Positions 14,610 to 30,073 are shown, counted from the stretch's first letter. The stretch: DNA of 64,000 nucleotides from an uncultured Actinomycetes bacterium (GCA_963814995.1 CAWFFF010000001.1:21354-85353), one strand, 5' to 3'. The notes: a model not told the origin generated them from the sequence alone. A program made the numbers and translations.

Positions 14610-15635
14610 CTACACGTTGAACCGGATCTCGAGGACGTCACCGTCTCGGACCTCGTAGTCCTTGCCTTCGACCCGCAGCTTCTTCAGCTCCCTCGCCTTG
14701 GCCCACGTGCCGACCACGAGGAGCTCCTTCCAGTCGATGACCTCGGCCCGGATGAAGCCGCGCTGGAGGTCGCTGTGGATGACGCCCGCGCACTCGGGCG
14801 CCTTGGCCCCGGCCCGGAACGTCCACGCCCGCGACTCGTCCTCGCCCGTCGTGAAGAACGTCCGCCGGCCGAGCATCTGGTACGCCGCCTGCGCGACGGA
14901 GTCGAGCGCGGACGGCCCGAGCCCGTACGACTCGCGCATCTCGTCGCGGTCCTCGGGCGCGCACGCCGCGATCTCGGCCTCGATGTCGATCGGCACCGCG
15001 AGGACGTCCTCGCCGGCCGGGAGCGCGGTGTCGGTCGCGAGCGCCTCGCCGGTGTTGGCCACCACGAGCAAGGGCTTCGTGGTGAGGAGGAAGACGGGGG
15101 CGAGATGCGCGAGCTCGTCGGCCGAGAACGACCCGCGCCGGATCGGCGTGCCGTCGGAGAGCAGCGCGTGCGCCCGTTCGAGCACCTCGACCTCGGCGAT
15201 GATCTCCTTGTCGCCGCTCTTGGCCGCCCGGCGCTGGCGCGTGATGCGCTGCTCGACGCTCGCGAGGTCGGCGAGCACGAGCTCGAGCTCGAGCGCGGCG
15301 AGGTCGCCCTCGGGATCCGGGGCAACACCGCCGTCGGAGAAGGCGCGGAGCACGATGAGGATCGCGTCGCAGTTGCGGAGGCTGCCGAGGAACTTGGCGC
15401 CGAGACCTTCGCCCGGTTTCGAGCCCGGCGGGAGGGCGAGGTGGACCAGCTCGAAGCCGGCCGCGACCGTCTTCTTCGAATGCGCGGCCTCGGTGAGGCG
15501 CAGCAGCCGTTCGTCGGGCAGGCTCGCCACACCGACCGCGGCCTCGTACTCGCTCGGCACGGGCAGGCCGGTCAAGGCGCTGAACAAGCGGTTCGCGCCC
15601 GCGCCGGTGAAACCCACGAGACCGAGGTTCTCCAT
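14610..15635 (-). CDS. ychF: YchF/OLA1-family ribosome-binding protein with degenerate G motifs
   Basis: GEGLGAKFL, LELELVLADL, TFFTTGEDESRAW, AGVIHSDLQRGFIRAEVI, EGKDYEVRDGDV (TGS domain). Confidence 0.9.
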   Translation of the reverse strand: MENLGLVGFTGAGANRLFSALTGLPVPSEYEAAVGVASLPDERLLRLTEAAHSKKTVAAGFELVHLALPPGSKPGEGLGAKFLGSLRNCDAILIVLRAFSDGGVAPDPEGDLAALELELVLADLASVEQRITRQRRAAKSGDKEIIAEVEVLERAHALLSDGTPIRRGSFSADELAHLAPVFLLTTKPLLVVANTGEALATDTALPAGEDVLAVPIDIEAEIAACAPEDRDEMRESYGLGPSALDSVAQAAYQMLGRRTFFTTGEDESRAWTFRAGAKAPECAGVIHSDLQRGFIRAEVIDWKELLVVGTWAKARELKKLRVEGKDYEVRDGDVLEIRFNV

Positions 15636-15643
15636 CGGGGCGC

Positions 15644-15664
15644 AGGCTACCGATCGGGTAGCCT
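15644..15664. promoter_or_regulatory. Back-to-back TAGCCT -10-like boxes for divergent ychF and bL37, forming an 8-bp inverted repeat
   Basis: AGGCTACC-GATCG-GGTAGCCT; TAGCCT lies 8 nt before the ychF ATG (minus strand) and 10 nt before the bL37-type ATG (plus strand). Confidence 0.55.
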
Positions 15665-15696
15665 CCAACCCCCTATGAGCAAGAAGACGAAGAAGC
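15657..15696 (+). repeat. attL: 40-bp direct repeat containing the bL37 -10 box and first 7 codons
   Basis: GGTAGCCTCCAACCCCCTATGAGCAAGAAGACGAAGAAGC, identical to 20987-21026. Confidence 0.95.
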
Positions 15697-15849
15697 CTCC
15701 GGGCCGCTTCTTCGCACCTTAGCCCTGGTCGCGGCCGGTGCGCTGGTAGCTGCCTCGTCGCGCGTCACCCGCGCTTGGTCGTCTTCGCCGCCCGCACGGT
15801 TTGCTGGTGCCCGTCGGGTATGAGCGGGCCCGATGGAGAACTTGGCCAT

Positions 15850-17286
15850 TCAAGGTGGGTCAACGAGGTGCCGGAAGGGCATCGACGCCGAGACGGCCAT
15901 TCGCACAGGCCTCGGACGTACCAATTCGACGGACGCACGCACCACCCCAGCGGCCGAATACCGCCCGGGCTCGACCGACTCGCCGTACTCGTGGGTGTTC
16001 GGTGGCGGGAACTCCCTCTCGAAGTAGCCGACGGCGCGCGCCGTCCGCTCCAATAGGGCTTCTACGTCACCAACCGTCTCGCATCCCGCGTGGAACAGCA
16101 ATTCTGTTAGTTGTGGCAGCTCATCGGGCCTGCAAGGCCTGCGGTCTTCGAACTTCTTCGCGAGGTACGGACCAAGCGTGTCAACGTCAAGAAAGGCATC
16201 CGCGCTGACCAAGGCACGCGCTTTTTCTTCAGCGTCCTGCACCTCGCGGAACAGCGTTTCAAACTGCAAATCTGCCGTGTAGAGCGAACCGCTCAGCGCG
16301 TGAAAGTCGCGCCGAAGTCTGCCAGGTATCCGACGTTCGGTGTTGTAGTCAAGAACGTGCGAGACGTTCGCCCACGCGTCCATGAGAATCGTACGCACCT
16401 GAATTTCGAGCGAGCGACCCCGGAGAGCCTCTGGCGTTTCGTCATCCCATGGAACCCGCACGTTGTGATGCACAGACATATAACCGAATGAGTCAACGGC
16501 AGAGCCCGCGACCTTATTCTCGACTGACAATACATCAAAGGTCTCACGAATGACCTCCGCGACGAGCTCAAGGTCTGCGAGGACGACACACACAACCCTC
16601 AGTCCTACGACGTCGCCAAGATTCTCGAAAGCGTAGAACTCCTCGTGTCGCCCAATCTTTTCGCGTATCGACTTGTCCGACTTAATACGTCCCGTAACCG
16701 AGTGAACATCGATGTTGGCGGTGCTTAGAGCCGATTCAAGCACATGTCTCGCATGCGACAGTACCGCTTCCAGGTTTTCCAGTTCCTCGCCTCGCCGAGC
16801 AGTTGCGTCATCCTGACACGCTCGCAGTGCGTCCGCCTTTGCTTGCTCGTAGACGGCGAAGTCAGCGGTCGACGGCAAAATGTCGTTTAGCCATTGTTCT
16901 ACTGCGGCCATTAGAAAGTGCTGCGTCATCGGGCGGTCGACGGCAACGAACCGTACGACCTCGCCTTCAGCTCCCGCGAAGTACGGCGCGCCTTCTGGGC
17001 CGAAGGTTAGAGAGTTGCGGACGAAGCCCTCTTGCGGAATCGGGTCGTCCTGCTTCCGAATTGCGGAGAATCTCCACGGCCCCTCAGGCCCATAGAAAGG
17101 GCTCATGCTGTCGAGCAACGCCACGGGCTTCTCCCGGAGAAGCCTCCTAACCTCCAGGAACACGGCATTGAGGTCTACCAACCCGATTGGTTGCATGTTC
17201 TCGTCGCGGTCGGGTTGGCCCGGGTTCACGACCAGCGTTATCGGGAATGCGTCGATAGGAAGTCTCACCGCGTCCGGCGACGTCAT
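15850..17286 (-). CDS. RelA/SpoT synthetase-domain protein (small alarmone synthetase-like) with extra N- and C-terminal domains
   Basis: GRIKSDKSIREK, DVVGLRVVC, FGYMSVH, LEIQVRTILMDAWANVSHVLDY; no HD hydrolase, TGS or ACT domain recognised. Confidence 0.88.
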   Translation of the reverse strand: MTSPDAVRLPIDAFPITLVVNPGQPDRDENMQPIGLVDLNAVFLEVRRLLREKPVALLDSMSPFYGPEGPWRFSAIRKQDDPIPQEGFVRNSLTFGPEGAPYFAGAEGEVVRFVAVDRPMTQHFLMAAVEQWLNDILPSTADFAVYEQAKADALRACQDDATARRGEELENLEAVLSHARHVLESALSTANIDVHSVTGRIKSDKSIREKIGRHEEFYAFENLGDVVGLRVVCVVLADLELVAEVIRETFDVLSVENKVAGSAVDSFGYMSVHHNVRVPWDDETPEALRGRSLEIQVRTILMDAWANVSHVLDYNTERRIPGRLRRDFHALSGSLYTADLQFETLFREVQDAEEKARALVSADAFLDVDTLGPYLAKKFEDRRPCRPDELPQLTELLFHAGCETVGDVEALLERTARAVGYFEREFPPPNTHEYGESVEPGRYSAAGVVRASVELVRPRPVRMAVSASMPFRHLVDPP

Positions 17287-17413
17287 CGGAGGTCAGCGTA
17301 TGCCGATGCGCGTGCTCAGCTCCAGCCGCCAGCCTCACTCCATGCCACAGGCTTTGGTGTAGCGAAGCGTCGCACGCATGAAGCGGTGCGTCAGGTGGCA
17401 CGAAGACCCGGTC

Positions 17414-17683
17414 CTAAGGCCATCCACCTTCCAGCGAGCAAGCGGCGACCTGTTCTCGTCCGGTCTCGGTGATTCTCCGAACGGCGTTCTTCTTGCCCCA
17501 CCGCGAGATACGCGCCTCTCCGGTTTCTTCGATGAAGCCGCGCTTCCGTAGCCGCGCGGGTCGGCTCGCGATACCGCTGACCGCTTGCCGGGGATAGATG
17601 CGCGCTACCAACTCATCGAACGTCAGACCGTCGGCGCCTGCGTCCGCGTAGGCCTGCAGAATCTCGTGTTCGGCGGGACTCAT
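17414..17683 (-). CDS. Small winged-helix DNA-binding protein, phage-like
   Basis: ILQAYADAGADGLTFDEL...SRPARLRKRGFIEETGEAR...RITETG; AGGAG RBS 9 nt upstream. Confidence 0.7.
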   Translation of the reverse strand: MSPAEHEILQAYADAGADGLTFDELVARIYPRQAVSGIASRPARLRKRGFIEETGEARISRWGKKNAVRRITETGREQVAACSLEGGWP

Positions 17684-17700
17684 TCGTGAATACTCCTGCC

Positions 17701-17852
17701 TGACCGAATGATTAGAGACTTCGGGGAGGCCGTAGGCACCGGAAGGCACGAAAAGACGCCTACGGACGCTCCCCGTGCCCGCCGAGCGCAGCTCGCGTCA
17801 GTCACGGTCGGAAGGGTGACCGAATGCGGACTGAGCGAAAGCGCGGCTGGGC
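17701..17852 (-). ncRNA. Putative structured RNA or cis-regulatory leader between the capsid-like and wHTH genes
   Basis: Two long hairpins (CGGGGAG/CTCCCCG plus CCGTAGGC/GCCTACGG; TCAGTC/GACTGA plus CGGTC/GACCG) and a 10-bp direct repeat TGACCGAATG at 17701 and 17817; strand inferred from flanking genes. Confidence 0.4.
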
Positions 17853-17860
17853 GAAAACAG

Positions 17861-18661
17861 CTACGCCGCGACGCGCGCGCAGAGCCCTTCGGGCAACGCG
17901 TTGGCGACGAAATCGCCACGCCAGACGAGCGCCTTTTCGAGACTCGACGGAATCGGCACTGCGCCCGGAGGTGTCGCATTCGCGACGGGAACGGTCGCGG
18001 TGATGCCCTTATTCAGTTCGTACGTCTCGATGTAGCGGGACGCGGCAACGACCATCGTGTCGTCATCCAAGCCGGGGCTGTAGACGACCTGGAGTCCTGC
18101 CGGACCTTCGGTCGCGAGCCGCGGAAAGACCGGCAGGTCGTCGGTGCCGGTCATGCCCGCGAGCGAATCCCAACGGTTACCGGAGACGAGCAGCACGTCA
18201 GCCATTCGCTTGCAGTTGGTACGGACGACCGTGATTCCGGCGACGATTGCGGAGAGCACTACACCGGGGCTGTCGAAATCAGTACATGGCGTTCCGTTGG
18301 TCGCGGCGGCGACGACCGCGTCGCACGCAGTCTCTTCGGTGACGACCGCGTACGAGTCCGCGAGCTCTTCGATGACCATGTCGAACCACGCATCGTGCGA
18401 CCAGTCGATGTCCTGCTCTGTCAGGTTGAGAGTGCGCGCGTATCGCCCCTTGTCGAACGTGTCAGCGGTCGTCGTCACTTGCGTCGAGGACGCTTGCGCT
18501 TTCTCGACGTGCAGCGCGGCGAGCGTCGCTGACGTGATGCGCGGCCGGTCGAACGTCTTGCCGAGGGTAGGCATCGGACCAGGACCGCGACCGCTACGCG
18601 AGATACTCGTTACCGGACGCCATTCGCGGTCCGCCTCGAAGTCGACCCGTCCCAATCGCAC
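17861..18661 (-). CDS. Phage major capsid-like protein (HK97 fold), short or N-terminally truncated; start uncertain
   Basis: RPV...MPTLGKTFDRPRIT...EK...YARTLNLTEQDIDWS...FDMVIEELADSYA...E, LAGMTGTDDLPVFP, GLQVVYSPGL resemble actinophage HK97-type capsid proteins. Confidence 0.72.
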   Translation of the reverse strand: MRLGRVDFEADREWRPVTSISRSGRGPGPMPTLGKTFDRPRITSATLAALHVEKAQASSTQVTTTADTFDKGRYARTLNLTEQDIDWSHDAWFDMVIEELADSYAVVTEETACDAVVAAATNGTPCTDFDSPGVVLSAIVAGITVVRTNCKRMADVLLVSGNRWDSLAGMTGTDDLPVFPRLATEGPAGLQVVYSPGLDDDTMVVAASRYIETYELNKGITATVPVANATPPGAVPIPSSLEKALVWRGDFVANALPEGLCARVAA

Positions 18662-18758
18662 AACACGCGGTAATCGTCGTCGGTCGCCGCGCCAAAGCGA
18701 TGATGCTGCGCGGTTGCCGGACTTCCCTTGCCGTCAGGACCCAGCTGTCCAAGTCGGT

Positions 18759-19922
18759 TTAGCTGCCAGGCAGTGCGCCCGCCGCGTATGCCTCAGTGAA
18801 CCGCTGCACGCAATCGAGGCCACCAGCAAAATCTTCGTTTAGCGGATTCAGACCAGCGGCTCGTAGTCGCGGCGCCAGCCCTGGGTCTCGGTTAACGACG
18901 TACGCCTGCATATCCTCTGACCGCCCTCTTGTTGCTTCAAGCAACATCGAAGAAACCAATAGGTCGTGTTCCGGCATTGAATAGCCGACTACAAATATCC
19001 TGCTGGCATTCCTGAGGACTTTCAGTGCACTTCGCCATAGAAGCTGAATCTTCGGATTATCAAAGAAGGCATTCTTGGACACGGTAGGCGGCACGATGAT
19101 GGGAACCTTGCCGGGTGCTCGGTGTTGCGGAAGCCATTCATGTTCGGCCTCGGAATCGTTCCAGCCCACCGGAAGGCCAATCTCGACCATGGAGTCCGCC
19201 GAGCGTGACGCGTCGTCCCAGTACCAGTGAATCGAGCCATGGAGCTTGTAAAGCCGGAACGTTCTAACAGGCATATAGCGTCTATCCCCTGCACCTTCCG
19301 ATTCCGCCCAGTGGCTCACGATAGATGGGCCGACCAATCTGTAGTTTGGCCATCCCCGACTTGGCACTTCAACCCAAAGGTCACTACTCGTGTAGGAGAG
19401 TGGAAGATGACAGCCGGCGAGGCATGCCTCTATAAGAGTGTCGTAGTTGAAGGTAATAACTTCTGCTTTGCGGTCGTGCCAGGCTCGGATAAGCCGGGGT
19501 AACCACTCGTTGGAATCGGGATGCACATGGATGCACGCATCGACAGTCGACTGGCATATTTGCGAGGCGACGGCGCTACTGACCTCGGCGAAGAGCGTGT
19601 GAGAACGGTCGTTCTCGCTCTGCTCCAAATAGGGCTGAGTCTGAGCCAGTCGACTCAACCAGACCTCAAAGTTGCCTCCCGGAGGCTTCCCACCGACAAG
19701 CCGTGGTTCGTCGCACGAGATTCCGTCGCAGGTGTCACTGTGTATTCGCCGCGAAGCCTTGTGTGCGCCTGCCAACTGGTCGATTGCACGCTGACCAAGA
19801 ACGTCGGTTGATGGCATGTAGTCGGGCGCTATCGCCATCGAGAAGCCAGCACCGAGAATGAAGACATCCTGCACGCCCGGAAGGCTAACTCGATGGTTTC
19901 GCGCATCGTCGCCCACCATCAT
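18759..19922 (-). CDS. SIR2-like (SIR2_2/AbiH-like) domain protein
   Basis: VFILGAGFS, VITFNYDTLIE, LYKLHGSIHW, IIVPPT, IFVVGYSMPEHD, VVNRD; ATGA-coupled to the integrase stop. Confidence 0.85.
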   Translation of the reverse strand: MMVGDDARNHRVSLPGVQDVFILGAGFSMAIAPDYMPSTDVLGQRAIDQLAGAHKASRRIHSDTCDGISCDEPRLVGGKPPGGNFEVWLSRLAQTQPYLEQSENDRSHTLFAEVSSAVASQICQSTVDACIHVHPDSNEWLPRLIRAWHDRKAEVITFNYDTLIEACLAGCHLPLSYTSSDLWVEVPSRGWPNYRLVGPSIVSHWAESEGAGDRRYMPVRTFRLYKLHGSIHWYWDDASRSADSMVEIGLPVGWNDSEAEHEWLPQHRAPGKVPIIVPPTVSKNAFFDNPKIQLLWRSALKVLRNASRIFVVGYSMPEHDLLVSSMLLEATRGRSEDMQAYVVNRDPGLAPRLRAAGLNPLNEDFAGGLDCVQRFTEAYAAGALPGS

Positions 19923-20896
19923 CCGGTGAAGGCGGTGCCCCTTGCTCTGTCGACCGGAGAACCCATCCGTTTGTAGGCCGCGATGGCACGTGCCGTTTTC
20001 TCGGCACGTCCGTAACGCATCGGCATCTCAGTCGTGCGCCACCCGCCCAGGCTCATTAGCACTTCGAGTTCCACGCCGTTCGATTTCAGGTCGTGCGCCC
20101 ACGTATGACGGAATAGGTGCGCCCGAGCGCCCGTAACCCCCGCCTCTTTCGCGGCAGAGGCGATGACGCCTGCAACCGTCTTGTACGAGGCAGCACCACT
20201 GCGCCCTACGAATAGCTGCGGTAGGAATGCGAAGCCGTGCGACTCGCGCGCGATGGCGTAGCGGTTCAGGAGCCGTGCCGTTTGGAATCCGAACATCACC
20301 GTACGTTCGTAGCCACCCTTCGCTATGGCTGCGTGTACGAACGCCTGACGCGCGCCGATGTCGACATGCTCCGCCAGGAGCCCGGCACACTCCGAGGCCC
20401 GTAGGCCCGTGTCCTGGAGGAGTGCGAGCATCGCAGGGTCTCGCGTCGCCTCGAACGCGGAGCGCCCGCTCCGACGTGAGCCGGCCCCCTTCGCCAAGCC
20501 CCGCAAGGCGTCAGCGTCGATGGCTGCGGGAGGTGCGTATTCGACCACCGGCAGGAGAGGCACGTAGAGCATCGGCGACTCGGAGATGACGCCCTCGTCT
20601 ACGAGCCAGTTGTAGAAGGTGCTTACCGTCAGGTTGTAGGTATTGATGGTCGTCGCCTTCAGCCCCCGTTTCACGAGCGAGTCTCGCCACGCGAGCAGTT
20701 GACCGTCCGTGACGAATGCGGCGTCCACGTCTCCAAAGTGCCGTGCGAGCCGTTGGAGCTGTTCCCGCTGGTTGACGATGGTTCGAGGTCGGGCGCCTCT
20801 CGCGCCGAGCTCGTTCTCCCAAAATGGGACCCATTCGAGGAACGTGCGCCCCGCTACCGGGACGGGTCGGATGCGTCGTTTCGGTTGCCCTGCCAT
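19919..20896 (-). CDS. Tyrosine recombinase/integrase
   Basis: SAM-like N-terminal domain; catalytic set TGLRASE (R), KGGYER (K), HLFRH (H,R), LGGW (W), MRY (Y). Confidence 0.93.
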   Translation of the reverse strand: MAGQPKRRIRPVPVAGRTFLEWVPFWENELGARGARPRTIVNQREQLQRLARHFGDVDAAFVTDGQLLAWRDSLVKRGLKATTINTYNLTVSTFYNWLVDEGVISESPMLYVPLLPVVEYAPPAAIDADALRGLAKGAGSRRSGRSAFEATRDPAMLALLQDTGLRASECAGLLAEHVDIGARQAFVHAAIAKGGYERTVMFGFQTARLLNRYAIARESHGFAFLPQLFVGRSGAASYKTVAGVIASAAKEAGVTGARAHLFRHTWAHDLKSNGVELEVLMSLGGWRTTEMPMRYGRAEKTARAIAAYKRMGSPVDRARGTAFTG

Positions 20897-20986
20897 GCCT
20901 TTCGGTGCCTCCCGCTTGCTCGTCTTTCTGGCGACCTGGCGGAACGCCAGGAGCCAGCTACGAAGCGGCCCGGAGGGCCGAAATCA

Positions 20987-21026
20987 GGTAGCCTCCAACC
21001 CCCTATGAGCAAGAAGACGAAGAAGC
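20987..21026 (+). repeat. attR: 40-bp direct repeat that restores the intact bL37 5' end
   Basis: Identical to 15657-15696. Confidence 0.95.
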
Positions 21027-21088
21027 GCCGTCTCAAGGCCCGCCGCAACAAGGCGAACCACGGCAAGCGGCCCCGCGCCGGGCGCTGA
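21005..21088 (+). CDS. 50S ribosomal protein bL37 (actinobacterial)
   Basis: MSKKTKKRRLKARRNKANHGKRPRAGR contains the bL37 signature KANHGKRP. Confidence 0.9.
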   Translation: MSKKTKKRRLKARRNKANHGKRPRAGR

Positions 21089-21106
21089 ACCGCCGGTCTC
21101 CCGCTC

Positions 21107-21595
21107 CTAGCGCGCGCTCTCGCCGACCCAGCGGGCGCCCTTTTCGAGCACCGGCCGGGGTACGTCGTGCAGCACGCCGCCGAACAGCTCGGCGATCGTC
21201 GTGCCGGCCAGCTCGGCCCGCCACACCTCGTCGGCCCGGGTGAACGCCCGGTGGATGCCACAGGCCTTCGTGTACTCGCGTGCGGGCATCGCCATCGGGC
21301 CGCGGCGGCGGATCTCGGTGCAGCGGAAGGCGGGCTCGTCGCCGTCGATCGCCTCCACGACGTCGAGCACCGTGATCTCCGCGGCCGGGCGCGCCAGTCG
21401 GTAGCCGCCCCGCGCCCCCTTCACCGTGCGCAGCACGCCCGCGCCCGCGAGCGCCTGCAGGTGCTTGGCCAGGTACGCGGCGGGCACGCCGTGGTACTCG
21501 GCGAGCTTCGCGGCCGGGAGCGCGGCGTCGTCGGGCAGGCTCGCGAGCAGCACGCAGACGTGCACACCCCACTCGACCCCGTCGGACAGGCGCAT
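21107..21595 (-). CDS. Rrf2-family transcriptional regulator, RsrR-type [2Fe-2S]
   Basis: MRLSDGVEWGVH (E8, H12), GARGGYRLAR, FRCTEIR (C92), KACGIH (C112) match the Glu/His/Cys/Cys ligand pattern of RsrR. Confidence 0.88.
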   Translation of the reverse strand: MRLSDGVEWGVHVCVLLASLPDDAALPAAKLAEYHGVPAAYLAKHLQALAGAGVLRTVKGARGGYRLARPAAEITVLDVVEAIDGDEPAFRCTEIRRRGPMAMPAREYTKACGIHRAFTRADEVWRAELAGTTIAELFGGVLHDVPRPVLEKGARWVGESAR

Positions 21596-21599
21596 AACC

Positions 21600-21616
21600 C
21601 GGATACTACCTATCCG
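21600..21616. promoter_or_regulatory. Putative Rrf2 operator (6-5-6 inverted repeat)
   Basis: CGGATA-CTACC-TATCCG just upstream of the Rrf2 start, in the divergent intergenic region. Confidence 0.55.
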
Positions 21617-21675
21617 ATAAAAGGCCGGTATCTCCGACGAACCACCCGGCCGGCCTCACTACCATGCTCGGCGTC

Positions 21676-22164
21676 ATGGCCACGATCGACGAAGCCGAGC
21701 TCCTGCCCGACGCCGACCAGCACAAGCTGCTGATCGCGACGTTGGAGCGCGTCAACCGCACGAGCAACGCCGCCCGGGCCGCCGCGCTGCAGAGCAACAC
21801 CTTCGAGGGCGCACCGCTGCGCGACATCGTGAAGGCCGAGGTCGAGAAGGCCAAGCTGCCCGATCTCCTCGTCCGTCCGGTCGCCGACCGGGTCGAGGAG
21901 TCGCTCAAGCGCCGGGCGGGGAAACAGCACAAGTTCTCGCAGTACCAGGGCCTGGCCCTCCCGGCGTCCGCGTTCAAATGGGGCGGCTCCGACCGGGTGA
22001 CGATGCTGACCGCGTCGGGCCGGCGCACGATCTCGGTGCGCGTCGACCGCAGCCGGGGCGACCTCCGGCCGCCGCTCGCGGGCCGGCCCGCGGCGCTCGT
22101 GTACCGCAACGGAGAGTTCGAGCTGTGGGCCACCGACGTCGAGCGCAAGTCCGACGACGACTGA
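21676..22164 (+). CDS. TnpB-derived protein: N-terminal WED/REC region only, no RuvC (alternative start 21664)
   Basis: ELLPDADQHKLLIATLERVNRTSN, KWGGSDRVTMLTASGRRTI, ALVYRNGEFELWATDV are collinear with the IS605-type TnpB N-terminal half; ends before the RuvC-I GVDLG motif. Confidence 0.68.
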   Translation: MATIDEAELLPDADQHKLLIATLERVNRTSNAARAAALQSNTFEGAPLRDIVKAEVEKAKLPDLLVRPVADRVEESLKRRAGKQHKFSQYQGLALPASAFKWGGSDRVTMLTASGRRTISVRVDRSRGDLRPPLAGRPAALVYRNGEFELWATDVERKSDDD

Positions 22165-22171
22165 AGCCGAG

Positions 22172-23041
22172 CTAACCCTCGCCGGTCGCCTCGTCGCCGG
22201 GGCGGCGGACGTGCATCGGCAGGTTGCCGGCCCGCTCGACGAGGAGTGACTGCACACCCCGGCCGATCACGCCGTGCTCGTCGTGCAGCCGGGTGTCGGC
22301 CATGCCAACGCCGTGCGGCTGAGCCCAACCTCCGGACTCGAGACAGACCCACTCGCCCACGGGGTGCCGGTGGACGTGGACGGTCAGCTCCGGGTTGATC
22401 GCGTTCGCGTTCGTCAAGCGCACGGGACTCGCCACCCCGCTACCGAAGTCGGCGGCCGCGGCGACCCGCGCGACCGGTGAGATCGGCTCCCCCGCGATCA
22501 CGGGGCACTTCAACCGGAACCACGCGACACCGGGCCCGGGTTCGAGCCAGTTGCCCGCGACGAGGTGGACGTCGTGCACGTTCCAGAACCCGATCGCACC
22601 CTCGCCGAACGGGAACTTCTGGCGCTCGACCGAGTCGGGATGCGGCGGAGCGTCGACGTCGGGATGTACCGACCCGCTCGTGTCGACGTTTTCGGAGCGG
22701 ATGCGCAGCGCGGTCGCGCGCGCGACCTCGTGCTCGCCCTTCGCGAAGAGCATCGCCTCGATCCACTGCACCTTGCGGCCGGGCCGGATCGTGCGCACGC
22801 GCAACTCGAGCGGTTCCAGCGGTACCGGCCGCATCAGCTCGACGGTCAGCCGCGCGAGGAACGCGGCCGGACCCGGGTCGTAGGTCTCGCACACGGTCGC
22901 GAACAGCGCGCTGGGCGCGCCGCCGTGCAGCGCGTTCGGGCTCCACGGACCGCGGGCCAACGCGGTGGGCACGTAGCGCGCACCGTCGGGTTCGAACAGC
23001 GCGCCGTAGCGCGCGATGGGATCGCCGGTCGTGTCGGGCAC
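22172..23041 (-). CDS. Thioesterase family protein (TesB-like double hot-dog)
   Basis: ARGPWSPNALHGGAPSAL, ARLTVELMRPVP, AAADFGSG, INPELTVHVHRHPVGEW. Confidence 0.85.
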   Translation of the reverse strand: MPDTTGDPIARYGALFEPDGARYVPTALARGPWSPNALHGGAPSALFATVCETYDPGPAAFLARLTVELMRPVPLEPLELRVRTIRPGRKVQWIEAMLFAKGEHEVARATALRIRSENVDTSGSVHPDVDAPPHPDSVERQKFPFGEGAIGFWNVHDVHLVAGNWLEPGPGVAWFRLKCPVIAGEPISPVARVAAAADFGSGVASPVRLTNANAINPELTVHVHRHPVGEWVCLESGGWAQPHGVGMADTRLHDEHGVIGRGVQSLLVERAGNLPMHVRRPGDEATGEG

Positions 23042-23050
23042 CCGGAGAAG

Positions 23051-23431
23051 CTAGCGATTGCTCAGACGGCCGAAGCCCGGGCCGCCGTCGTCGCCGCGCC
23101 CACGCTTCCAGAACTGCCACCACTTCCGGCCGTTCGAGGTGCGCCCGAGCTCGCGCAAGGCCTCGGGCTCGGCCGCCTCGACGATCATCTCCGCGTCGTC
23201 GAGCACGTCCTGGATCGCTTCGGGACTCTCGTCGGGCTCGGGCTCGACCTCCGGACGCGTCAACGACCCCGCGACGAACGACCCGTCGATCAACGTGCGC
23301 TCGAACTGCGCGCAGTTCTCCGGGCACCGCCACGGAGCCTCTGGCGCGAGGTCGAGCACGCAGAACCGCGCGACCTCGCCGCCGGGATACGTGCGGCTCT
23401 CGAAGTGCCGGCAGTCCTCCCGCATCGCCAT
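23051..23431 (-). CDS. Hypothetical Cys-containing protein
   Basis: MREDCRHFESRTY...FCVLDLAPEAPWRCPENC; host-like codon usage. Confidence 0.7.
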   Translation of the reverse strand: MAMREDCRHFESRTYPGGEVARFCVLDLAPEAPWRCPENCAQFERTLIDGSFVAGSLTRPEVEPEPDESPEAIQDVLDDAEMIVEAAEPEALRELGRTSNGRKWWQFWKRGRGDDGGPGFGRLSNR

Positions 23432-23467
23432 CCCCCGAGTGTGCCAGAGCGAGAACACGGAAAAAGT

Positions 23468-23526
23468 CACCAACAGTTGTCGGAGATCTCAGCGGTGGGT
23501 GCGGAGAACTCCGACAACTGTTGGTG
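23468..23526. repeat. REP-like palindrome of the same family as 5613-5723
   Basis: 18-bp perfect arms CACCAACAGTTGTCGGAG / CTCCGACAACTGTTGGTG. Confidence 0.85.
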
Positions 23527-23537
23527 GAGTTGTGGCC

Positions 23538-24422
23538 TCAGTGCCAGGCCGGGAGGCGGCGGAGGTAGGCGAGCATCGCGTCGGAGGTCTCGCGCGGGCG
23601 TTCCTGTTGGGTCCAATGGCCGCAGTCCGCGATGACCACGCTTTCGAGATCGGGGACGCGCTCCTCCATCCCCGCCGTCATCGCGGGCGTGAGCACGGGA
23701 TCGTCCGCGGCCGAGATCATGAGGCACGGCACGTCGATCGTGCGGTCCGCGATGTCGGCGGTGAGCTCCCAGTTACGGTCCATGTTCCGGTAGTACTCGA
23801 TGGGCGGGGTGAGCGCGCCGACCGGACGGAACGCGTCCTTGTAGACGTCGAGCACGTGGGGTGGGAACGCGTCGGGGTTGTGCGTCGTCGCGCCGAAGAT
23901 CATCTCGACGAAATCGTCGGCGCCGCGACCCCAGGTGCCGAGCACCCACTCCGCGAGGCCGCGCTCTTGGAACTGGATGATGTAGATGGGCGTGTCGACG
24001 AAGATCTGGCGCAGCAACTGCACCGGAGGCATCACCGAGCGCGGCAGGTCGGGCGTGTTCACGCCGATCACGCCCGCGACCCGATCGGGATACCGGCGGG
24101 CCATGATCCACACAAGGATGCCGCCCCAGTCGTGGCCCGCGATCACCGCCCGTTCGCATCCCAGCGCGTCGAGCACGCCGACCAGGCACGCGTCGATCCA
24201 CTCGCAGTCGTAGCTGACGTCGGGCTTGTCACTGCGGCCGTAACCGGGCAGATCGGGAGCGACGACGTGGAACCCGGCCTCTCCCAGCGCCGAGACCTGG
24301 TGACGCCAGGAGTACGCCAGCTCGGGAAAGCCGTGCAGCAACAGCACGACCGGGCCGTCGGCCGGGCCCGCTTCCAGGCAGAACAGGCGGATGCCGTTGG
24401 TGATCACGTAGCGGCTGCGCAC
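23538..24422 (-). CDS. Alpha/beta hydrolase, epoxide hydrolase-like
   Basis: LLHGFPELAYSWRHQ, PDLPGYGRS, GHDWGG, CGHWTQQE. Confidence 0.9.
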   Translation of the reverse strand: MRSRYVITNGIRLFCLEAGPADGPVVLLLHGFPELAYSWRHQVSALGEAGFHVVAPDLPGYGRSDKPDVSYDCEWIDACLVGVLDALGCERAVIAGHDWGGILVWIMARRYPDRVAGVIGVNTPDLPRSVMPPVQLLRQIFVDTPIYIIQFQERGLAEWVLGTWGRGADDFVEMIFGATTHNPDAFPPHVLDVYKDAFRPVGALTPPIEYYRNMDRNWELTADIADRTIDVPCLMISAADDPVLTPAMTAGMEERVPDLESVVIADCGHWTQQERPRETSDAMLAYLRRLPAWH

Positions 24423-24499
24423 GAATCGTGACCCTAACGGGAACCGGCCACCCCACCCGCGTCGTCGGATCCCCGGGTCAACCGATGAAGGGGACACCG

Positions 24500-25264
24500 A
24501 TGCGCGCACTCACCTGGATCTCCCCGGCGAAGATCGCGGTCGCCGGCGTGGCGACGATCGCCGCGGTCGGCATCGCCGGCTGCAGTAGTAGCTCGAAACC
24601 CGACGCATCCGCCGCACTCACTGCCGCGACGACGCCGGCATCGAGCTCGGGCCCGTCGATCAACGTCTCCGGTCACGGTCAGGTCGAGGGCACACCCGAC
24701 GTCATGACGGTGACGATGGGTGTGCAGACGTCCGACCCGTCCGCGCAGGCCGCGCTCCAGCGCAACAACGACCGTGCGCACGCGCTGATCAACGCGCTGA
24801 AGAGCCACGGCGTCTCGGCGAAGGACATCCAGACGGTCGACCTCAACGTGTCACCGAACTTCGACAAGAACTTCCACGTGACCGGCTACTCGGCATCGAA
24901 CACCGTCTCGGCGAAGCTGCGTGATCTGGGGAAGGCCGGGGCGGTCATCGACGCGGCCGCGTTGACCGCCGGCGAGGACGTGCGCCTGCAGGGTGTCTCG
25001 TTCTCGATCGACAACACGAGCGCGCTGGTGGCCAAGGCCCGCGCCGACGCCGTCAAGGACGCGCTGGCCCAGGGCAAGCAGCTCGCGGCGGCCGCCGGGG
25101 TCACGCTCGGCAAGATCCGCACCGTCGACGACACCGGCACCCAGCTCCCGTTCCCGCAGGCACTGAAGAGCACCTCGTTCCAGGACGCGACGGCAACGCC
25201 GATCGAGCCCGGCTCGCAGCAGCTGAGCGTCGACGTCGTCGTCGTGTTCGACATTTCGACCTGA
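24500..25264 (+). CDS. SIMPL (DUF541) domain lipoprotein
   Basis: Lipobox IAGC; INVSGHGQVEGTPD, DIQT, ARADAVKDA, PIEPGSQQLSVDV. Confidence 0.88.
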   Translation: MRALTWISPAKIAVAGVATIAAVGIAGCSSSSKPDASAALTAATTPASSSGPSINVSGHGQVEGTPDVMTVTMGVQTSDPSAQAALQRNNDRAHALINALKSHGVSAKDIQTVDLNVSPNFDKNFHVTGYSASNTVSAKLRDLGKAGAVIDAAALTAGEDVRLQGVSFSIDNTSALVAKARADAVKDALAQGKQLAAAAGVTLGKIRTVDDTGTQLPFPQALKSTSFQDATATPIEPGSQQLSVDVVVVFDIST

Positions 25265-25300
25265 TCCGAAGTTCGGCGCCCTGATCCGAAGTTCGGCGCC
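25261..25300 (+). repeat. 20-bp tandem duplication overlapping the SIMPL stop codon
   Basis: CTGATCCGAAGTTCGGCGCC x2. Confidence 0.85.
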
Positions 25301-25374
25301 CCTGTTCCCCCGGGACGGCCCGCCGATCCGGGAGTACCGTCGCGGACGTTCGGCGCCGTCTCGGGGGAGAGCCA

Positions 25375-26775
25375 ATGGCGGAAGCGGCACGGTTCGCGCA
25401 CCACATGAGCGACGAGGACGCGCTCATGTGGAACATCGAGAAGGATCCTGTCCTGCGGTCGACGATCCTCGCGGTCGCCCTCCTCGACTCCGCGCCCGAC
25501 TGGGAGCGGCTGCGGCGCCGCGTCGAGCGCGCCACCCACTACATCCCCCGCTTGCGCCAGCGCGTCGTCTCGCCGCCGTTCCGGATCGCGCCGCCCCGCT
25601 GGATGGCCGAACCCGCCTTCGACCTCGACTTCCACTTCCGGCGCGTCCGCCTGGCCGGGCCCGCGACGCTGCGCTCACTCCTCGACGCGTTGCAGCCGGC
25701 CGCGACGTCGAGCTTCGACCGCGCTCGACCCCTGTGGGAGTTCACACTGTTCGAAGGGCTCGACGGCGACCGCGCCGCGTTGGCGTTGAAGGTGCACCAC
25801 TCCGTCACCGACGGCGTGGGCGGCATGGAGCTGCTCGCGCACTTCGTCGACTTCGTCCCCGACGCGGAGGAACGGCCCGACCGCGACGTGCCGGCCGTGC
25901 TCGCGGCGGAAACCGCGCGCATCGTCGATGTGATGCGCCTCTCGCTCGCGCACACGCGCCGGCGCGCGCTGGGGATCGCGCAACGCGCCCCGATGACCGC
26001 GGTGCACGCCGTCGCGCACGCGGTGTCGGATCCGATCGGCACCGCGTCGCAGACGCTGCGGACGACCCGCTCGATCGCGCGCACGCTCGCGCCCACGACG
26101 AGCCCGATGTCGCAGGTGATGCTCGGGCGGGGCATGGGCCGCCGGCTCGAGGCGTTCGACGTCCCGCTCGACGACCTGAAGCGCGTCGCCAAGGCGACCG
26201 ACAGCAGCCTGAACAGCGTGTTCGTCGCCGCGGTCGTCGGCGGCCTCCGGCGATACCACGAGCGGCACGGCTCCGCGCCGGTCGAGCTGCGGATGACGCT
26301 GCCGATCAACCTGCGCCAAGGCGACGACCACACGGCCGGCAACCGTTTCGCGCCGGCCCGGTTCCCCGTGCCGACGTCGATCCAGGATCCACGGGCGCGC
26401 ATCGCCGCGCTCGGCGCCCTCGTCCGCGAGTGGCGGGCCGAACCCGCGCTGCAGATGACCAGCACGCTCGCCGGCATCCTCAACCGGATGCCCACCGCCG
26501 CGACCACCGCGTTGTTCGGCGGGATGCTCAAGTGCTGCGACTTCGTCACGACCAACGTCCCGGGCGCGCCCGTGCCGGTCTACGTCGCAGGCGCGCGGGT
26601 CGACCGGTTCTACGCGTTCGCTCCGCCCGCGGGCGCCGCCTTCAATGTCGCCCTGATCTCGCACTGCGACACGTGCTGCATCGGCATCGTGATCGACACC
26701 GTGGCCGTCCCCGACGCCGACGTCCTGGTCGCGTGCCTGCGCGACGGATTTGCGGAGATGTGTGCGCTGGCCTGA
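25375..26775 (+). CDS. Wax ester synthase/diacylglycerol acyltransferase (WS/DGAT)
   Basis: FDLDFH, FDRARPLWE, KVHHSVTDG (HHxxxDG), TNVPG. Confidence 0.92.
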   Translation: MAEAARFAHHMSDEDALMWNIEKDPVLRSTILAVALLDSAPDWERLRRRVERATHYIPRLRQRVVSPPFRIAPPRWMAEPAFDLDFHFRRVRLAGPATLRSLLDALQPAATSSFDRARPLWEFTLFEGLDGDRAALALKVHHSVTDGVGGMELLAHFVDFVPDAEERPDRDVPAVLAAETARIVDVMRLSLAHTRRRALGIAQRAPMTAVHAVAHAVSDPIGTASQTLRTTRSIARTLAPTTSPMSQVMLGRGMGRRLEAFDVPLDDLKRVAKATDSSLNSVFVAAVVGGLRRYHERHGSAPVELRMTLPINLRQGDDHTAGNRFAPARFPVPTSIQDPRARIAALGALVREWRAEPALQMTSTLAGILNRMPTAATTALFGGMLKCCDFVTTNVPGAPVPVYVAGARVDRFYAFAPPAGAAFNVALISHCDTCCIGIVIDTVAVPDADVLVACLRDGFAEMCALA

Positions 26776-26791
26776 CCGTAGAGTTGGGGGC

Positions 26792-27913
26792 ATGACGACC
26801 CCCGACGATCTGAAGCTCCCGCCCGAACTGTTGCCGAGCGACGGGCGGTTCGGATCGGGGCCCTCCAAGGTGCGCGACGAGGCCGTCGCCGACCTCGCCC
26901 GCATCGCGCACGACTACCTCGGCACCAGCCACCGCCGCGACGGCGTGCGCTCGGTGGTCGGCGACATCCGCCGCGGGCTCGCCGAGCTGTTCTCGCTCCC
27001 CGACGGCTACGAGGTCCTGCTCGGCCTGGGCGGCTCGACGCTCTTCTGGGACGCGGCCGCGTTCGGGCTGGTCGAACGGCGGAGCACGCACGTCGTGATC
27101 GGCGAGTTCTCGTCGAAGTTCGCGGCGGTCACCCGGGCCGCGCCCCACCTCGACGACCCGCAGGTGTGCGAGACCGCGCCGGGCGAGACCCCGGCGTTGC
27201 CCGACTCCGTCCTCGGCGACGTGTACGCGTACCCGCACAACGAGACGTCGACGGGAGTCACGGTCGACGTGCATCGTCCCGCGGGCGGCGCGCTGGTCGT
27301 CGTCGACGGTACGTCGGCCGCGGGGGGCATCCGCGTCGACCCACGCGCATTCGACACCTACTACTTCGCGCCGCAGAAGTGCTTCGCGAGCGACGGCGGC
27401 CTGTGGCTCGCCTTGTGCTCCCCCGCTGCGATCGCGCGCATCGAGCAGATCCACGGCACGCGCTGGATACCCGCCGCGCTCGACCTCTCGATCGCGGTCC
27501 AGAACTCGCGCCTCGACCAGACGTACAACACCCCCGCGCTCGCCACGCTGTATCTGCTCGACCGCCAGCTGCGTTGGATGCTCGACAACGGGGGGCTCGA
27601 ATTCGCGGCCGGGCGCTGCGACCGTTCGGCCGGGATCGTCTACGGCTGGGCCGACGGCCACCAGCACGCAACACCCTTCGTCAAGGATCCCGCGCACCGC
27701 AGCACCGTCACCGCAACGATCGACTTCGACGAGCGGGTCGACACGTCGAAGATCAGTGCCGCGCTGCGCGCCAACGGCATCGTCGACGTCGAGCCCTACC
27801 GCAAGCTCGGCCGCAACCAGCTGCGCATCGCGCTGTTCCCGGCGATCGAGCCCGACGACGTCGCCACCCTGACCCGTGCGATCGACTTCCTGGTGGAGCG
27901 CGTGGCAGTGTGA
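26792..27913 (+). CDS. serC: Phosphoserine aminotransferase, actinobacterial type
   Basis: DGRFGSGPSKVR, HNETSTGV, YFAPQK, QTYNTPA, EPYRKLGRNQLRI. Confidence 0.95.
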   Translation: MTTPDDLKLPPELLPSDGRFGSGPSKVRDEAVADLARIAHDYLGTSHRRDGVRSVVGDIRRGLAELFSLPDGYEVLLGLGGSTLFWDAAAFGLVERRSTHVVIGEFSSKFAAVTRAAPHLDDPQVCETAPGETPALPDSVLGDVYAYPHNETSTGVTVDVHRPAGGALVVVDGTSAAGGIRVDPRAFDTYYFAPQKCFASDGGLWLALCSPAAIARIEQIHGTRWIPAALDLSIAVQNSRLDQTYNTPALATLYLLDRQLRWMLDNGGLEFAAGRCDRSAGIVYGWADGHQHATPFVKDPAHRSTVTATIDFDERVDTSKISAALRANGIVDVEPYRKLGRNQLRIALFPAIEPDDVATLTRAIDFLVERVAV

Positions 27914-27917
27914 CCGA

Positions 27918-28622
27918 ATGCTGCTGCTGCACGAGGTTCATACCGTTGTCGGGCGCCACGAGGACGAGTTCGAAGAGGCGTTCCGCAAGGGTTGGATGAG
28001 CGCCCTCGGCCGCGACAACGACGCCCGGCTCCTCTACTACCTGAAGCTCGCGCACGGCACCGGTCGCGCGTACCACCACACCTCGATCACCGCGTTCGCG
28101 AGCGGCGACACGTACGAGCGCGTCGCCCGCCGTATCCAGCGCGGCGACCTGCGCAGCTGGGCCGCGGACATCGACGGCATGCGCCACGAAGTGAAAGGCA
28201 AGATGTTGTTGCCGGTCGAGTGGTCACCGATGGGCGACCTCGACCTCGCATCGGTTCCCGCCGACGGCCCAGAGCACGAACCCGCCCTCTACATGGAGGA
28301 CAGCGCGTGGCCGTACGAAGCCAAGCTCGACACGTACCTCGAGCAGGCGCGCACCCACTACGCGCCGAGCCTCGAGCAACGTTCCGAGCGGTCGCTGCTC
28401 ACACTGCTCGCCGTGTTCCAGGCCGCACTGGGCGCACCTCGTCGCCGTGAGGTGATCCTGTGGCAGCGCGTCGACTTCCCGGAGCGACTGCCCGGCCTCT
28501 TCACGCGCGAGTTGCCCGGCCACGTAAAGGGCCCGGGCACGTGGATGCACGACGCGCTCGACGTGCGCGACGACTGGGAGAGCCGCCTGCTCCGCAGCAC
28601 ATCGTGGTCGCCGCTGGGCTAG
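27918..28622 (+). CDS. NIPSNAP-like dimeric alpha/beta-barrel protein
   Basis: LLHEVHTVVG...ARLLYY...HGTG; WESRLLR...WSPL terminus. Confidence 0.6.
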   Translation: MLLLHEVHTVVGRHEDEFEEAFRKGWMSALGRDNDARLLYYLKLAHGTGRAYHHTSITAFASGDTYERVARRIQRGDLRSWAADIDGMRHEVKGKMLLPVEWSPMGDLDLASVPADGPEHEPALYMEDSAWPYEAKLDTYLEQARTHYAPSLEQRSERSLLTLLAVFQAALGAPRRREVILWQRVDFPERLPGLFTRELPGHVKGPGTWMHDALDVRDDWESRLLRSTSWSPLG

Positions 28623-28837
28623 TGACCTGAGTCGGTATGTCGCGTGAGCGTCAGACCCGCGGACAGCGACCGCGGCCGCGCCGAACACGGGAGCAGCAAC
28701 TCCGACCCGACGCGATGCGTGGTTCGGACCCACGCGTGGGGCGTGACGCCCTGCGCCATTGCGACGGGCGCGGAAACGTCGGGTCGATAGCTGACCGCCA
28801 GCATGACGCCGGTTGCGACGAGCACGAACACGAGCAC
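28619..28837 (-). CDS. Small membrane protein resembling the cytochrome b N-terminus; possibly a fragment
   Basis: LVATGVMLAVSYRP...WVRTTHR resembles the cytochrome b TG.L...Y.P...R..H segment. Confidence 0.35.
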   Translation of the reverse strand: MLVFVLVATGVMLAVSYRPDVSAPVAMAQGVTPHAWVRTTHRVGSELLLPCSARPRSLSAGLTLTRHTDSGH

Positions 28838-28864
28838 GCACGCGCCGCGCGCAGGTGTTCGCGG

Positions 28865-29728
28865 TTACGAGAACTTGGTCGGGTACGGCGCGTCGGAGGC
28901 GGTGCCGCCGAGCTTGCCGCCCAGGTTGTCGCACTCGCCGCTGAAGACGCCCCAGTTGCACTTGAGGATGGGCGCGACCCACGCGTGCACCATCCACACG
29001 TCGGTCAGGAGGGTCTTCGTCCCGCCCTGCGCCGCGCACTCCTGGCGTGTCGACTCCTCACCGGCGACCACGACGCCGCCCTTGAGGCACAGCCCGCCGT
29101 TGGCGTTGTGCTGGTGCCAGCGGTCGTTGGCACCCGCGAACCCGGGCGGCGGACCGTCCTTGTGCCAGACCAGGTAGCTGAGGCCGACGATCTTGGAGTC
29201 GAGGCTCGTGCCCGCGAAGAGCAGCTCGGACGGGTTGGCCGGATCGAAGTGCGACGCGTACGCGATGTTCGTGTAGTGCGCGCCGATGCACGGCACGTAC
29301 ACCGTCGACATCGAGTAGCCCGCGGCGAGCGCCTGCTTCACCGTGGGGTACTTCGCGACGACCGACCGGGCCGCCGCGAGCTGCGTGGCGAGCTGCGCCT
29401 TCTCGGCCGTGGTGAGCGGGACCTGCGGGACCTTGCCGCGCTCGCCGTGCTCCTCGGCGATGACCGACGCCTTGTTCGCGACCGACGCGCTCCCGCCCCC
29501 GCCCGCGCCGACCTCACCCGGTGACGACGGCGTGGGCGCGGCTTCCTCGCACGGCGACTTCGCGGCGGCGGTCTGCACCTTCCTCGCGGTCGTCGGCGCG
29601 GTCTTGGCGGCGGTGGTCGGCGAGCTGTCCGACGACTTCGAGCTCGAACCGCACCCCGCGAGCGCCAGCGCGATGGTGAGCAGACCCGCACCGACAGCGA
29701 GATTCGAGACAGCGAATCGAGACTTCAT
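28865..29728 (-). CDS. Lipoprotein of unknown function with His/Cys motifs
   Basis: Lipobox LAGC; CIGAHY, WHQH...LC, WMVHAWV; GGGGGAG RBS. Confidence 0.8.
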   Translation of the reverse strand: MKSRFAVSNLAVGAGLLTIALALAGCGSSSKSSDSSPTTAAKTAPTTARKVQTAAAKSPCEEAAPTPSSPGEVGAGGGGSASVANKASVIAEEHGERGKVPQVPLTTAEKAQLATQLAAARSVVAKYPTVKQALAAGYSMSTVYVPCIGAHYTNIAYASHFDPANPSELLFAGTSLDSKIVGLSYLVWHKDGPPPGFAGANDRWHQHNANGGLCLKGGVVVAGEESTRQECAAQGGTKTLLTDVWMVHAWVAPILKCNWGVFSGECDNLGGKLGGTASDAPYPTKFS

Positions 29729-29809
29729 GAGCTCCCCCCGGGGCGCGGTTCGCGTCATGGTACGACCTTTTTGCCTACCCGGTGCAAGAAGCCGGCGACA
29801 GGCTCCGGC

Positions 29810-30073
29810 TCAGTCGCGGACGGCGAGGCCGGTGTCGGCGAGGAGCACCCTGCGGGGGCCGGCCGGGAACAACTCGGGTTCACCGGGACGGGGCCACGAC
29901 CGCAGCCGGCGCCACCGGACCCGGGCCGCGACCACGGCCCGGGCGGCGAGGATCACGACACCCGCCGCGGCGATGGCCATCGCCGTGTGGGTGACCCGGC
30001 CGTCGACGAGGTGCACGGCACCCCCGACGATCGACGCCGAGAACACCATGACGAACAACGTCCGCAGCCGCAT
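29810..30073 (-). CDS. Small hypothetical membrane protein
   Basis: Two hydrophobic segments; GGAGG upstream of ATG. Confidence 0.5.
   Translation of the reverse strand: MRLRTLFVMVFSASIVGGAVHLVDGRVTHTAMAIAAAGVVILAARAVVAARVRWRRLRSWPRPGEPELFPAGPRRVLLADTGLAVRD

Follow-up and report, generated by a model that had tools for sequence, protein, structure and literature searches.

The window analyzed here is a 64,000-nt stretch from the genome of an uncultured Actinomycetes bacterium (GCA_963814995.1 CAWFFF010000001.1:21354-85353). Between a divergent gene for an Rrf2-type regulator and a convergent acyl-CoA thioesterase gene, it carries an open reading frame (ORF) with an ATG start and a TGA stop, called here the short gene. 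Its product, the short protein, had been likened by eye, in a reading of the sequence alone, to the N-terminal half of TnpB from IS605-type elements. Our analysis indicates that the short protein is almost certainly a homologue of the TnpB recognition lobe, that is, of the wedge (WED) and recognition (REC) domains, and that the short gene is very probably a functional, domesticated gene. Translation begins at 21664 or at 21676, because many orthologues start at the second in-frame ATG, the fifth codon (M5).

Scans of the short protein against Pfam, NCBIfam, and PADLOC gave no useful match, and a PDB sequence search with the protein and with its family profile returned chance matches only (E >= 0.25). 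A phmmer search of 1.84 billion representative proteins found 59 proteins and reached three full-length TnpBs (P0175, P0177, and P0179; 371-382 aa; E 5e-4 to 8e-4). All three were aligned by their N-termini and contain PF07282, and two also contain PF01385. To compare whole families, a profile of 26 short-family members (A1) was aligned by hhalign with a profile of 22 full-length TnpBs (A2). The two matched with a probability of 99.4% and an E value of 2.7e-21 over 147 collinear columns, which place residues 10-157 of the window protein opposite residues 14-161 of the 380-aa P0179. Used as a hidden Markov model, A1 scored 61-81 bits on TnpB N-termini. In the reverse direction, A2 was searched against 56,526 six-frame pieces of the window's own genome, and the short ORF was the sole significant match (E 1e-15, profile positions 7-153 of 372; next-best matches, E 0.17 and 0.18). 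This search also serves as a control against composition artifacts in a genome of 69% G+C. The short protein stops about 20 residues ahead of the RuvC-I motif in the TnpB consensus, at TnpB-profile position ~153-161, in agreement with the earlier observation that it ends just where RuvC-I would begin. By the names that their sources give, the closest full-length relatives come from Chloroflexota and Dormibacteria, and those in the clade of P0177, P0179, and P0223 carry the names "IS605 OrfB family transposase" or "RNA-guided endonuclease InsQ/TnpB family protein." TnpBs resident in sister families gave no match to the short-family profile.

The AlphaFold2 model of the short protein (pLDDT 89, pTM 0.82) begins with a single strand, followed by three long helices and then by six strands. 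WED strand beta1 (residues 10-13) is followed by a three-helix REC insertion (17-81), the remaining WED strands (97-156), and an acidic tail (158-166). In ISDra2 TnpB, WED comprises residues 1-12 and 117-176, REC residues 13-116, and RuvC starts at 185 (PMC10097598). As modeled, the short protein has the same topology, WED(beta1)-REC(helices)-WED(barrel). Foldseek comparison with the PDB returned 234 matches, and the six with E <= 0.001 were all Cas12f or ISDra2 TnpB. Every listed chain down to rank 32 belonged to TnpB, Cas12, Fanzor, or TranC, and the first unrelated chain appeared at E 0.62. One match, 8ex9_A, is a 166-residue TnpB model in which the recognition lobe alone is resolved; it gave a TM-score of 0.54 in both directions. 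The collinearity first noted by eye was thus borne out by phmmer, hhalign, the reverse profile search, and Foldseek, and the structural and profile match to TnpB and Cas12f, on which the sequence-only reading had made itself depend, was found.

Conservation was compared residue by residue. In related TnpB N-termini, 53 aligned positions are at least 90% conserved, and the short family has the same majority residue at 26 of them. The kept residues belong mostly to the core (L13, P15, Q19, L23, T26, R29, N31, L65, F91, W106, T116, G119, R120, R148, F152, and L154). The lost positions are mainly polar or aromatic (in P0179 numbering, K53, Q57, Y61, F68, Q73, R77, Y104, D105, R107, Y135, Q146, and D148), and the short family has invariant or near-invariant residues of its own (Q95, R121, G132, L134, P137, and L138). 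The short protein has a pI of 9.3, with 27 K+R against 24 D+E, and zero cysteines; its acidic C-terminal tail is conserved in the family. Prediction of a homodimer (two copies, alignment A1) scored 0.00, which counts neither way.

The nuclease lobe was sought elsewhere in the same genome, which has 4.85 Mb in 13 contigs, an estimated completeness of 71.6% (marker count), and one copy of the short gene. PF01385 (RuvC) matched neither the short protein nor the genome, PF07282 (the TNB zinc finger) had 0 matches in the genome, and the C-terminal part of the TnpB profile matched nothing significantly in the six-frame translation (best E 0.17 and 0.18). Neither insertion sequence (IS) ends nor tnpA were found for the short gene. 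The earlier statement that no tnpA or RuvC remnant follows was borne out, in a genome estimated to be 71.6% complete. Across the order, PF07282 occurred in 19 of 121 sampled genomes. Its count was 0 of 47 in carrier families (f1 0/11, f2 0/11, f8 0/11, f12 0/4, f16 0/6, f14 0/1, f17 0/1, and f5 0/2), although related genomes do not count as independent samples. The positive families were f53 (10/11), f15 (3/5), f7 (2/11), f3 (2/11), f9 (1/11), and f6 (1/7), with the f53 and f7 counts resting partly on unpublished genomes G353 and G212. In a control set, 8 of 14 genomes were positive. The two distributions are complementary: of the six TnpB-positive families, five were sampled for the short gene and none of these yielded it (f53 lay outside that sample). 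Two candidate explanations were rejected on these results. The short gene is not one part of a TnpB split into two genes, because no separate RuvC gene was found in the window's own genome. Nor does it assist or inhibit TnpB elements resident beside it, because no TnpB was found in the 47 sampled carrier-family genomes.

A guide RNA was also looked for. Rfam searches over window positions 15000-30000 at E <= 1 returned only chance matches to microRNA and small nucleolar RNA families. The 7-bp gap between the short-gene stop and the end of the convergent thioesterase ORF is as described earlier (22165-22171). Most related loci leave no room beside the gene for an omega-RNA (~100 nt or more), and apart from the Rrf2 operator described below, no conserved noncoding stretch was found beside the gene. 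These results bear on the idea that the short protein is a minimal TldR, an RNA-guided DNA-binding repressor that uses a guide RNA encoded elsewhere. TldRs are nuclease-dead TnpB derivatives that retain RNA-guided binding (10.1101/2023.11.30.569447), WED and REC of TnpB are in contact with the pseudoknot and stem 4 of the omega-RNA, with the TAM (transposon-adjacent motif) duplex, and with the heteroduplex (PMC10097598), and the fold is kept here with high confidence. We nevertheless disfavor this idea and judge it improbable, because RuvC, absent here, holds most of the omega-RNA scaffold in TnpB (stems 1-3 and half of the pseudoknot; PMC10097598), because TldR guides lie directly downstream of tldR (10.1101/2023.11.30.569447) whereas here 7 bp follow the stop, and because half of the TnpB-conserved residues of surface type are replaced. 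In 16 sister-family loci, moreover, a phosphatase gene follows 2-154 bp after the short gene, and the upstream spacer keeps the Rrf2 operator only, with no Rfam match beyond chance.

The short gene is widely conserved within a narrow group. At E <= 0.001, a word-indexed search returned 363 proteins with lengths of 91-291 aa; among the matches listed (120 of 363), lengths were 161-183 aa, identities were 73-95%, and the proteins were unnamed or called "hypothetical protein." A search for longer homologues returned four proteins, none with a Pfam domain. The alignments of P0121 and P0122 degrade midway along the protein, as those of frameshifted or read-through gene calls would. The short gene was present in 37 of 301 sampled genomes of the class Acidimicrobiia, all within the window's order. 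Every sampled genome was positive in eight families (f1 16/16, f2 3/3, f5 1/1, f8 10/10, f12 2/2, f14 1/1, f16 2/2, and f17 1/1), and no match came from any other sampled family (for example, f3 0/15, f6 0/7, f7 0/6, and f9 0/4). There was a single match in 35 of the 37 positive genomes, and G140 and G196 had two partial matches each, adjacent in G196. The named records that hold the gene are metagenome-assembled genomes labeled Acidimicrobiia, Actinomycetes, or Actinomycetota, and the named divergent relatives are labeled likewise. Since the closest homologues have the same length and are not full-length TnpBs, the copy in the window is not a unique recent truncation.

Purifying selection is evident among these orthologues. 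The ORF is intact (150-174 aa) in 61 of 63 fetched loci, a set in which at least four genomes are included twice, and the other two run off the contig. The ratio of nonsynonymous to synonymous substitution rates (dN/dS) against the window copy was 0.066-0.158 for the 19 closest loci (dS 0.34-0.71). The median over 1661 pairs with 0.05 < dS < 1.5 was 0.33, a value inflated by saturation of dS. G+C at third codon positions (GC3) is 0.952 in the short gene, inside the range of 0.886-0.963 for neighboring host genes, so codon usage is host-like as first suggested, and the genes of a nearby integrative island have lower values (Table 1). Together with same-length orthologues in eight families, host-gene synteny, and near-single-copy status, these data bear out retention as a host gene. 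They also leave a decaying, functionless IS fragment as a negligible prospect. That explanation can point to the nearest named ESM Atlas clusters, which are called "transposase (fragment)" and are leads only, and to P0173, a 168-aa "putative transposase" on the TnpB side of the tree described next. It has against it the single match in 35 of 37 genomes, fixation in eight families, the intact reading frames, dN/dS of 0.07-0.16, host-like GC3, conserved host synteny, and the failure to find TnpA, RuvC, or IS ends.

A quick maximum-likelihood tree of 62 N-terminal modules, unrooted, placed all 37 short-family rows on one side of a branch with 99% support (SH-aLRT). The long branch between the short family and the TnpBs (~2 changes per column), the missing root, and the invariant residues peculiar to the short family would all suit a family that is not derived from TnpB, being either an older stand-alone precursor of the TnpB front half, with an OB (oligonucleotide/oligosaccharide-binding) fold plus helices, or a convergent fold. 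Convergence is excluded by the profile E value of 2.7e-21 and the full collinearity. As for a precursor, TnpB is spread across bacteria and archaea (PMC10691335), and the short family was found in one order of one class and in a few Actinomycetota metagenome proteins. With TnpB widespread and the short family narrow, the parsimonious direction is from TnpB to the short form, and an origin outside TnpB is very improbable.

Table 1. Features of the window around the short gene and of the gene array found in sister families
Feature	Position	Strand	Evidence or remarks
Integrative island, 5.33 kb	15697-20982		Flanking 44-nt direct repeat
Direct repeat of island	15653-15696 and 20983-21026		43/44 identical
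SIR2_2-like gene of island	18759-19922	-	PADLOC SIR2 models E 7e-11; GC3 0.613
Tyrosine integrase of island	19919-20896	-	GC3 0.742
27-codon ORF	21005-21088	+	No Pfam match
Divergent RsrR-like Rrf2 regulator	21107-21595	-	PF02082 E 9.9e-31; PDB 6hsd E 1.6e-46, residues 1-144
11-3-11 inverted repeat, probable RsrR/Rrf2 operator	21596-21620		Conserved in 25 related loci
REC-lobe-only TnpB derivative (short gene), 166 aa	21664-22164	+	ORF, AlphaFold, Foldseek, hhalign, orthologues, dN/dS
Acyl-CoA thioesterase gene, convergent; marks 3' boundary of short gene	22172-23041	-	PF20789 + PF13622
ORF, 140 aa	23051-23473		No family; found in some relatives only
Palindromic hairpin	23466-23528		Rfam: chance miRNA-family matches, both strands
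Array: PIG3-type quinone oxidoreductase	Before short gene		Five sister families
Array: histidine phosphatase	Co-directional, aligned ends 2-154 bp apart		16/20 loci
Array: HelD/HelR-like RNA-polymerase recycling motor, 775 aa	After phosphatase		15/20 loci
Array: M3 oligoendopeptidase	After HelD-like motor		Five sister families

In the window's family, the gene order is rrf2 (divergent), short gene, thioesterase (convergent), and alpha/beta hydrolase. Of 34 related loci, 29 have rrf2 adjacent and divergent, at a distance of 0.8-2 kb in three of them. The thioesterase gene is directly downstream in 29 of the 34, with gaps between aligned ends of ~5-110 bp in 26 and of 0.5-1 kb in L051, L061, and L065; the gaps in relatives were taken from tblastn coordinates. 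Beyond the thioesterase gene, an ORF without a family and a palindromic hairpin lie before the hydrolase gene in the window (Table 1).

The divergent regulator is a close homologue of PDB entry 6hsd, Streptomyces venezuelae RsrR, in which Glu8, His12, Cys90, and Cys110 are the [2Fe-2S] ligands. At the aligned positions, the regulator in the window carries E8, H12, C92, and C112. Its start codon lies 68 bp upstream of the short gene, and the inverted repeat forms the first 25 bp of this spacer, abutting the rrf2 start. The repeat is kept in 25 loci; outside it, the spacer (28-137 bp) varies. Full Rrf2/RsrR sites are laid out as 11-3-11 too, and the gene that RsrR represses is divergent from rsrR itself (PMC5015018). 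The repeat is a probable RsrR/Rrf2 operator and could serve both genes. In the window's family, the short gene is likely to be regulated by the RsrR-like protein, and redox-dependent control of the short gene is plausible from this arrangement.

In families f2, f5, f8, f12, and f16, the short gene stands in another conserved array, in the order oxidoreductase, short gene, phosphatase, HelD-like motor, and M3 peptidase, as in L071:4955-11351 and 15 similar loci (L066-L085). Full-length NCBIfam matches of the HelD-like protein had E values of 1.8e-148 and 2.8e-130, under the equivalog cutoffs. Orthologues of the array neighbors are scattered in the window's own genome over other contigs (C5, C8, and C11). 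Those of the HelD-like protein (G000:C8:534182-536536) and of the M3 peptidase (G000:C11:203105-204727) each appeared as several adjacent tblastn pieces, which suggests frameshifts or assembly indels. Divergent copies of the short gene in f14 and f17 have other housekeeping contexts.

The array raises the question of whether the scaffold was reused for protein contacts, for instance with HelD, RNA polymerase, or the histidine phosphatase, while nucleic acid binding was lost. The phosphatase gene is close and co-directional in 16 of 20 sister-family loci and the HelD-like gene is next in 15 of 20, the acidic C-terminal tail is conserved, and other exapted TnpB/Cas12f relatives act with sigma factors (PMC10691335; PMC13472631). 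The link to HelD and the phosphatase is, however, lost in the window's family, in f14, and in f17, where the gene is nevertheless intact. The short protein is also basic and keeps its barrel, and OB-fold barrels are typical of nucleic acid binders. We consider an exclusive role in protein contacts unlikely.

The integrative island ends ~680 bp from the short gene, which lies outside the attachment site-bounded element as originally described. Among 30 relatives spanning the site, 29 lack the island and have contiguous flanks; L039 has an integrase homologue instead, and five further loci do not reach the left flank of the site. The island repeat covers the first 22 bases of the 27-codon ORF, whose product (MSKKTKKRRLKARRNKANHGKRPRAGR) resembles the small actinobacterial ribosomal protein bL37 but had no Pfam match.

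On balance, we favor the following explanation as a whole. The short gene encodes the recognition lobe of an IS200/IS605-type TnpB, the WED OB-fold barrel with its helical REC insertion; the entire nuclease lobe (RuvC and the TNB zinc finger) was lost long ago, and the remainder became a chromosomal host gene, vertically retained and single-copy in nearly all carriers, in part of one Acidimicrobiia order. The results above show the homology and fold, the missing nuclease lobe, the retention under purifying selection, the lack of TnpB matches in sampled carrier genomes, and the lack of space for an adjacent guide RNA, whereas the function is inferred. RNA-guided enzyme activity would be gone, and the small basic protein would bind nucleic acid by itself, probably through the WED/REC cleft, which may hold duplex DNA or a DNA/RNA structure. 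In TnpB, the TAM duplex and the beginning of the heteroduplex sit in this cleft, and WED also contacts the omega-RNA (PMC10097598). Direct, guideless binding of duplex DNA or a structured nucleic acid would therefore be the simplest activity to retain. Taken by itself, guide-independent binding by the short protein is the likeliest of the functions considered, although it falls a little short of even odds. In the window's family, the divergent RsrR-like redox regulator would probably govern expression by way of the shared operator. In the sister families, the gene would probably be cotranscribed with those for the histidine phosphatase and the HelD-like RNA polymerase recycling motor, an arrangement that suggests a role in transcription or nucleic acid handling.

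Several observations weigh against this explanation. The Foldseek TM-scores are moderate (0.5-0.66, with root mean square deviations of 4-7 A). More than half of the conserved TnpB N-terminal positions (27 of 53) are changed in the short family, and with these residues replaced, the ancestral TAM and RNA contacts may be gone. The absence of TnpB from the window's own genome is weak evidence when taken alone, because completeness is only 71.6%, and the tree is an unrooted, quick version only. Finally, the links to Rrf2 and HelD may reflect nothing more than synteny, given that the neighborhood differs among families.

A broader proposal is that the TnpB recognition lobe is an autonomous unit, and the short family a new class of small factor binding DNA or R-loops/hybrids without RuvC or a guide. 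Such a factor might use the former TAM cleft to read a short duplex motif and act on transcription complexes, ancestrally with the HelD-like motor and in the window's family under RsrR-like redox control. We put this forward as doubtful speculation. A conserved, selected, nearly always single-copy family consisting of this lobe alone suggests that the recognition lobe can fold and serve by itself, and it raises the question of whether TAM-type DNA reading or RNA binding is possible without RuvC and a guide. The family would offer a very small (~160-aa) natural module for engineering. The analysis also gives a likely origin to what had been a "hypothetical protein" family, present in each of the 36 genomes sampled from eight Acidimicrobiia families.

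Domesticated TnpB itself is already known. A form reduced to the REC lobe did not turn up in the literature searched and is apparently undescribed there; no account of a RuvC-less or stand-alone TnpB was found in the accessible text, the supplementary tables of PMC10691335 lying outside its reach. Proteins of similar length (155-226 aa) are the ESM Atlas "transposase (fragment)" clusters, PF27142 (Aq_aa04), PF27234 (MJ0013), and PF27229 (SSO2105_N), which are mostly archaeal or from Aquificota. The Atlas look-alikes scored 0.94-0.95 on language-model features; they are likened by features without alignment and are leads only. A further lead is P0166, a 408-aa metagenome protein on a 3636-bp contig, with two tandem REC-lobe modules (47% identical to each other, E 3e-42) and without RuvC or any Pfam domain. 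It groups with TnpB N-termini and not with the short family, so it may be an independent RuvC-less derivative and hints that such forms arose more than once.

Compared with TnpB, the short protein is homologous and collinear over the whole WED and REC lobe and has the same fold and topology. It lacks RuvC with its D-E-D triad, the TNB zinc finger, the C-terminal domain, and tnpA. For the short gene, unlike tnpB, no transposon-like copies were seen and there is no adjacent space for an omega-RNA, and the gene is fixed in host lineages and under purifying selection.

The TldRs are the closest parallel in other respects. Like the short gene, they are immobilized TnpB derivatives without tnpA or transposon ends, sit beside host genes, and are not nucleases. 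The short gene also shares their clade-specific association with host genes, here rrf2 and the thioesterase gene or, in five families, the HelD-like array. In contrast with the short protein, TldRs have a bilobed fold and keep the RNA-binding interface, with RuvC mutated and partly truncated at the C terminus (10.1101/2023.11.30.569447; 10.64898/2026.09.22.753285), and they are encoded beside their guide RNA (10.1101/2023.11.30.569447), whereas the short gene has no adjacent guide locus. The sequence-only reading had held that known domesticated TnpBs keep an inactivated RuvC. This is only partly right. The accessible parts of these papers describe no TldR without the whole nuclease lobe and place all of them beside a guide RNA.

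More widely, all domesticated derivatives of TnpB or Cas12 described in the accessible literature (among them Cas12 effectors, Cas12k, Cas12m, TldR, and sigma-associated proteins) keep the bilobed, RNA-guided architecture. As described there, the TnpB/Cas12f derivatives associated with sigma factors, flagellin, or DppD differ from the short protein in keeping a RuvC-like domain, the most reduced of them lacking RuvC-III only, and in having long 3' untranslated regions for guides (PMC10691335). They took the same route as the short gene, immobilization followed by presumed regulatory recruitment (PMC10691335; PMC13472631).

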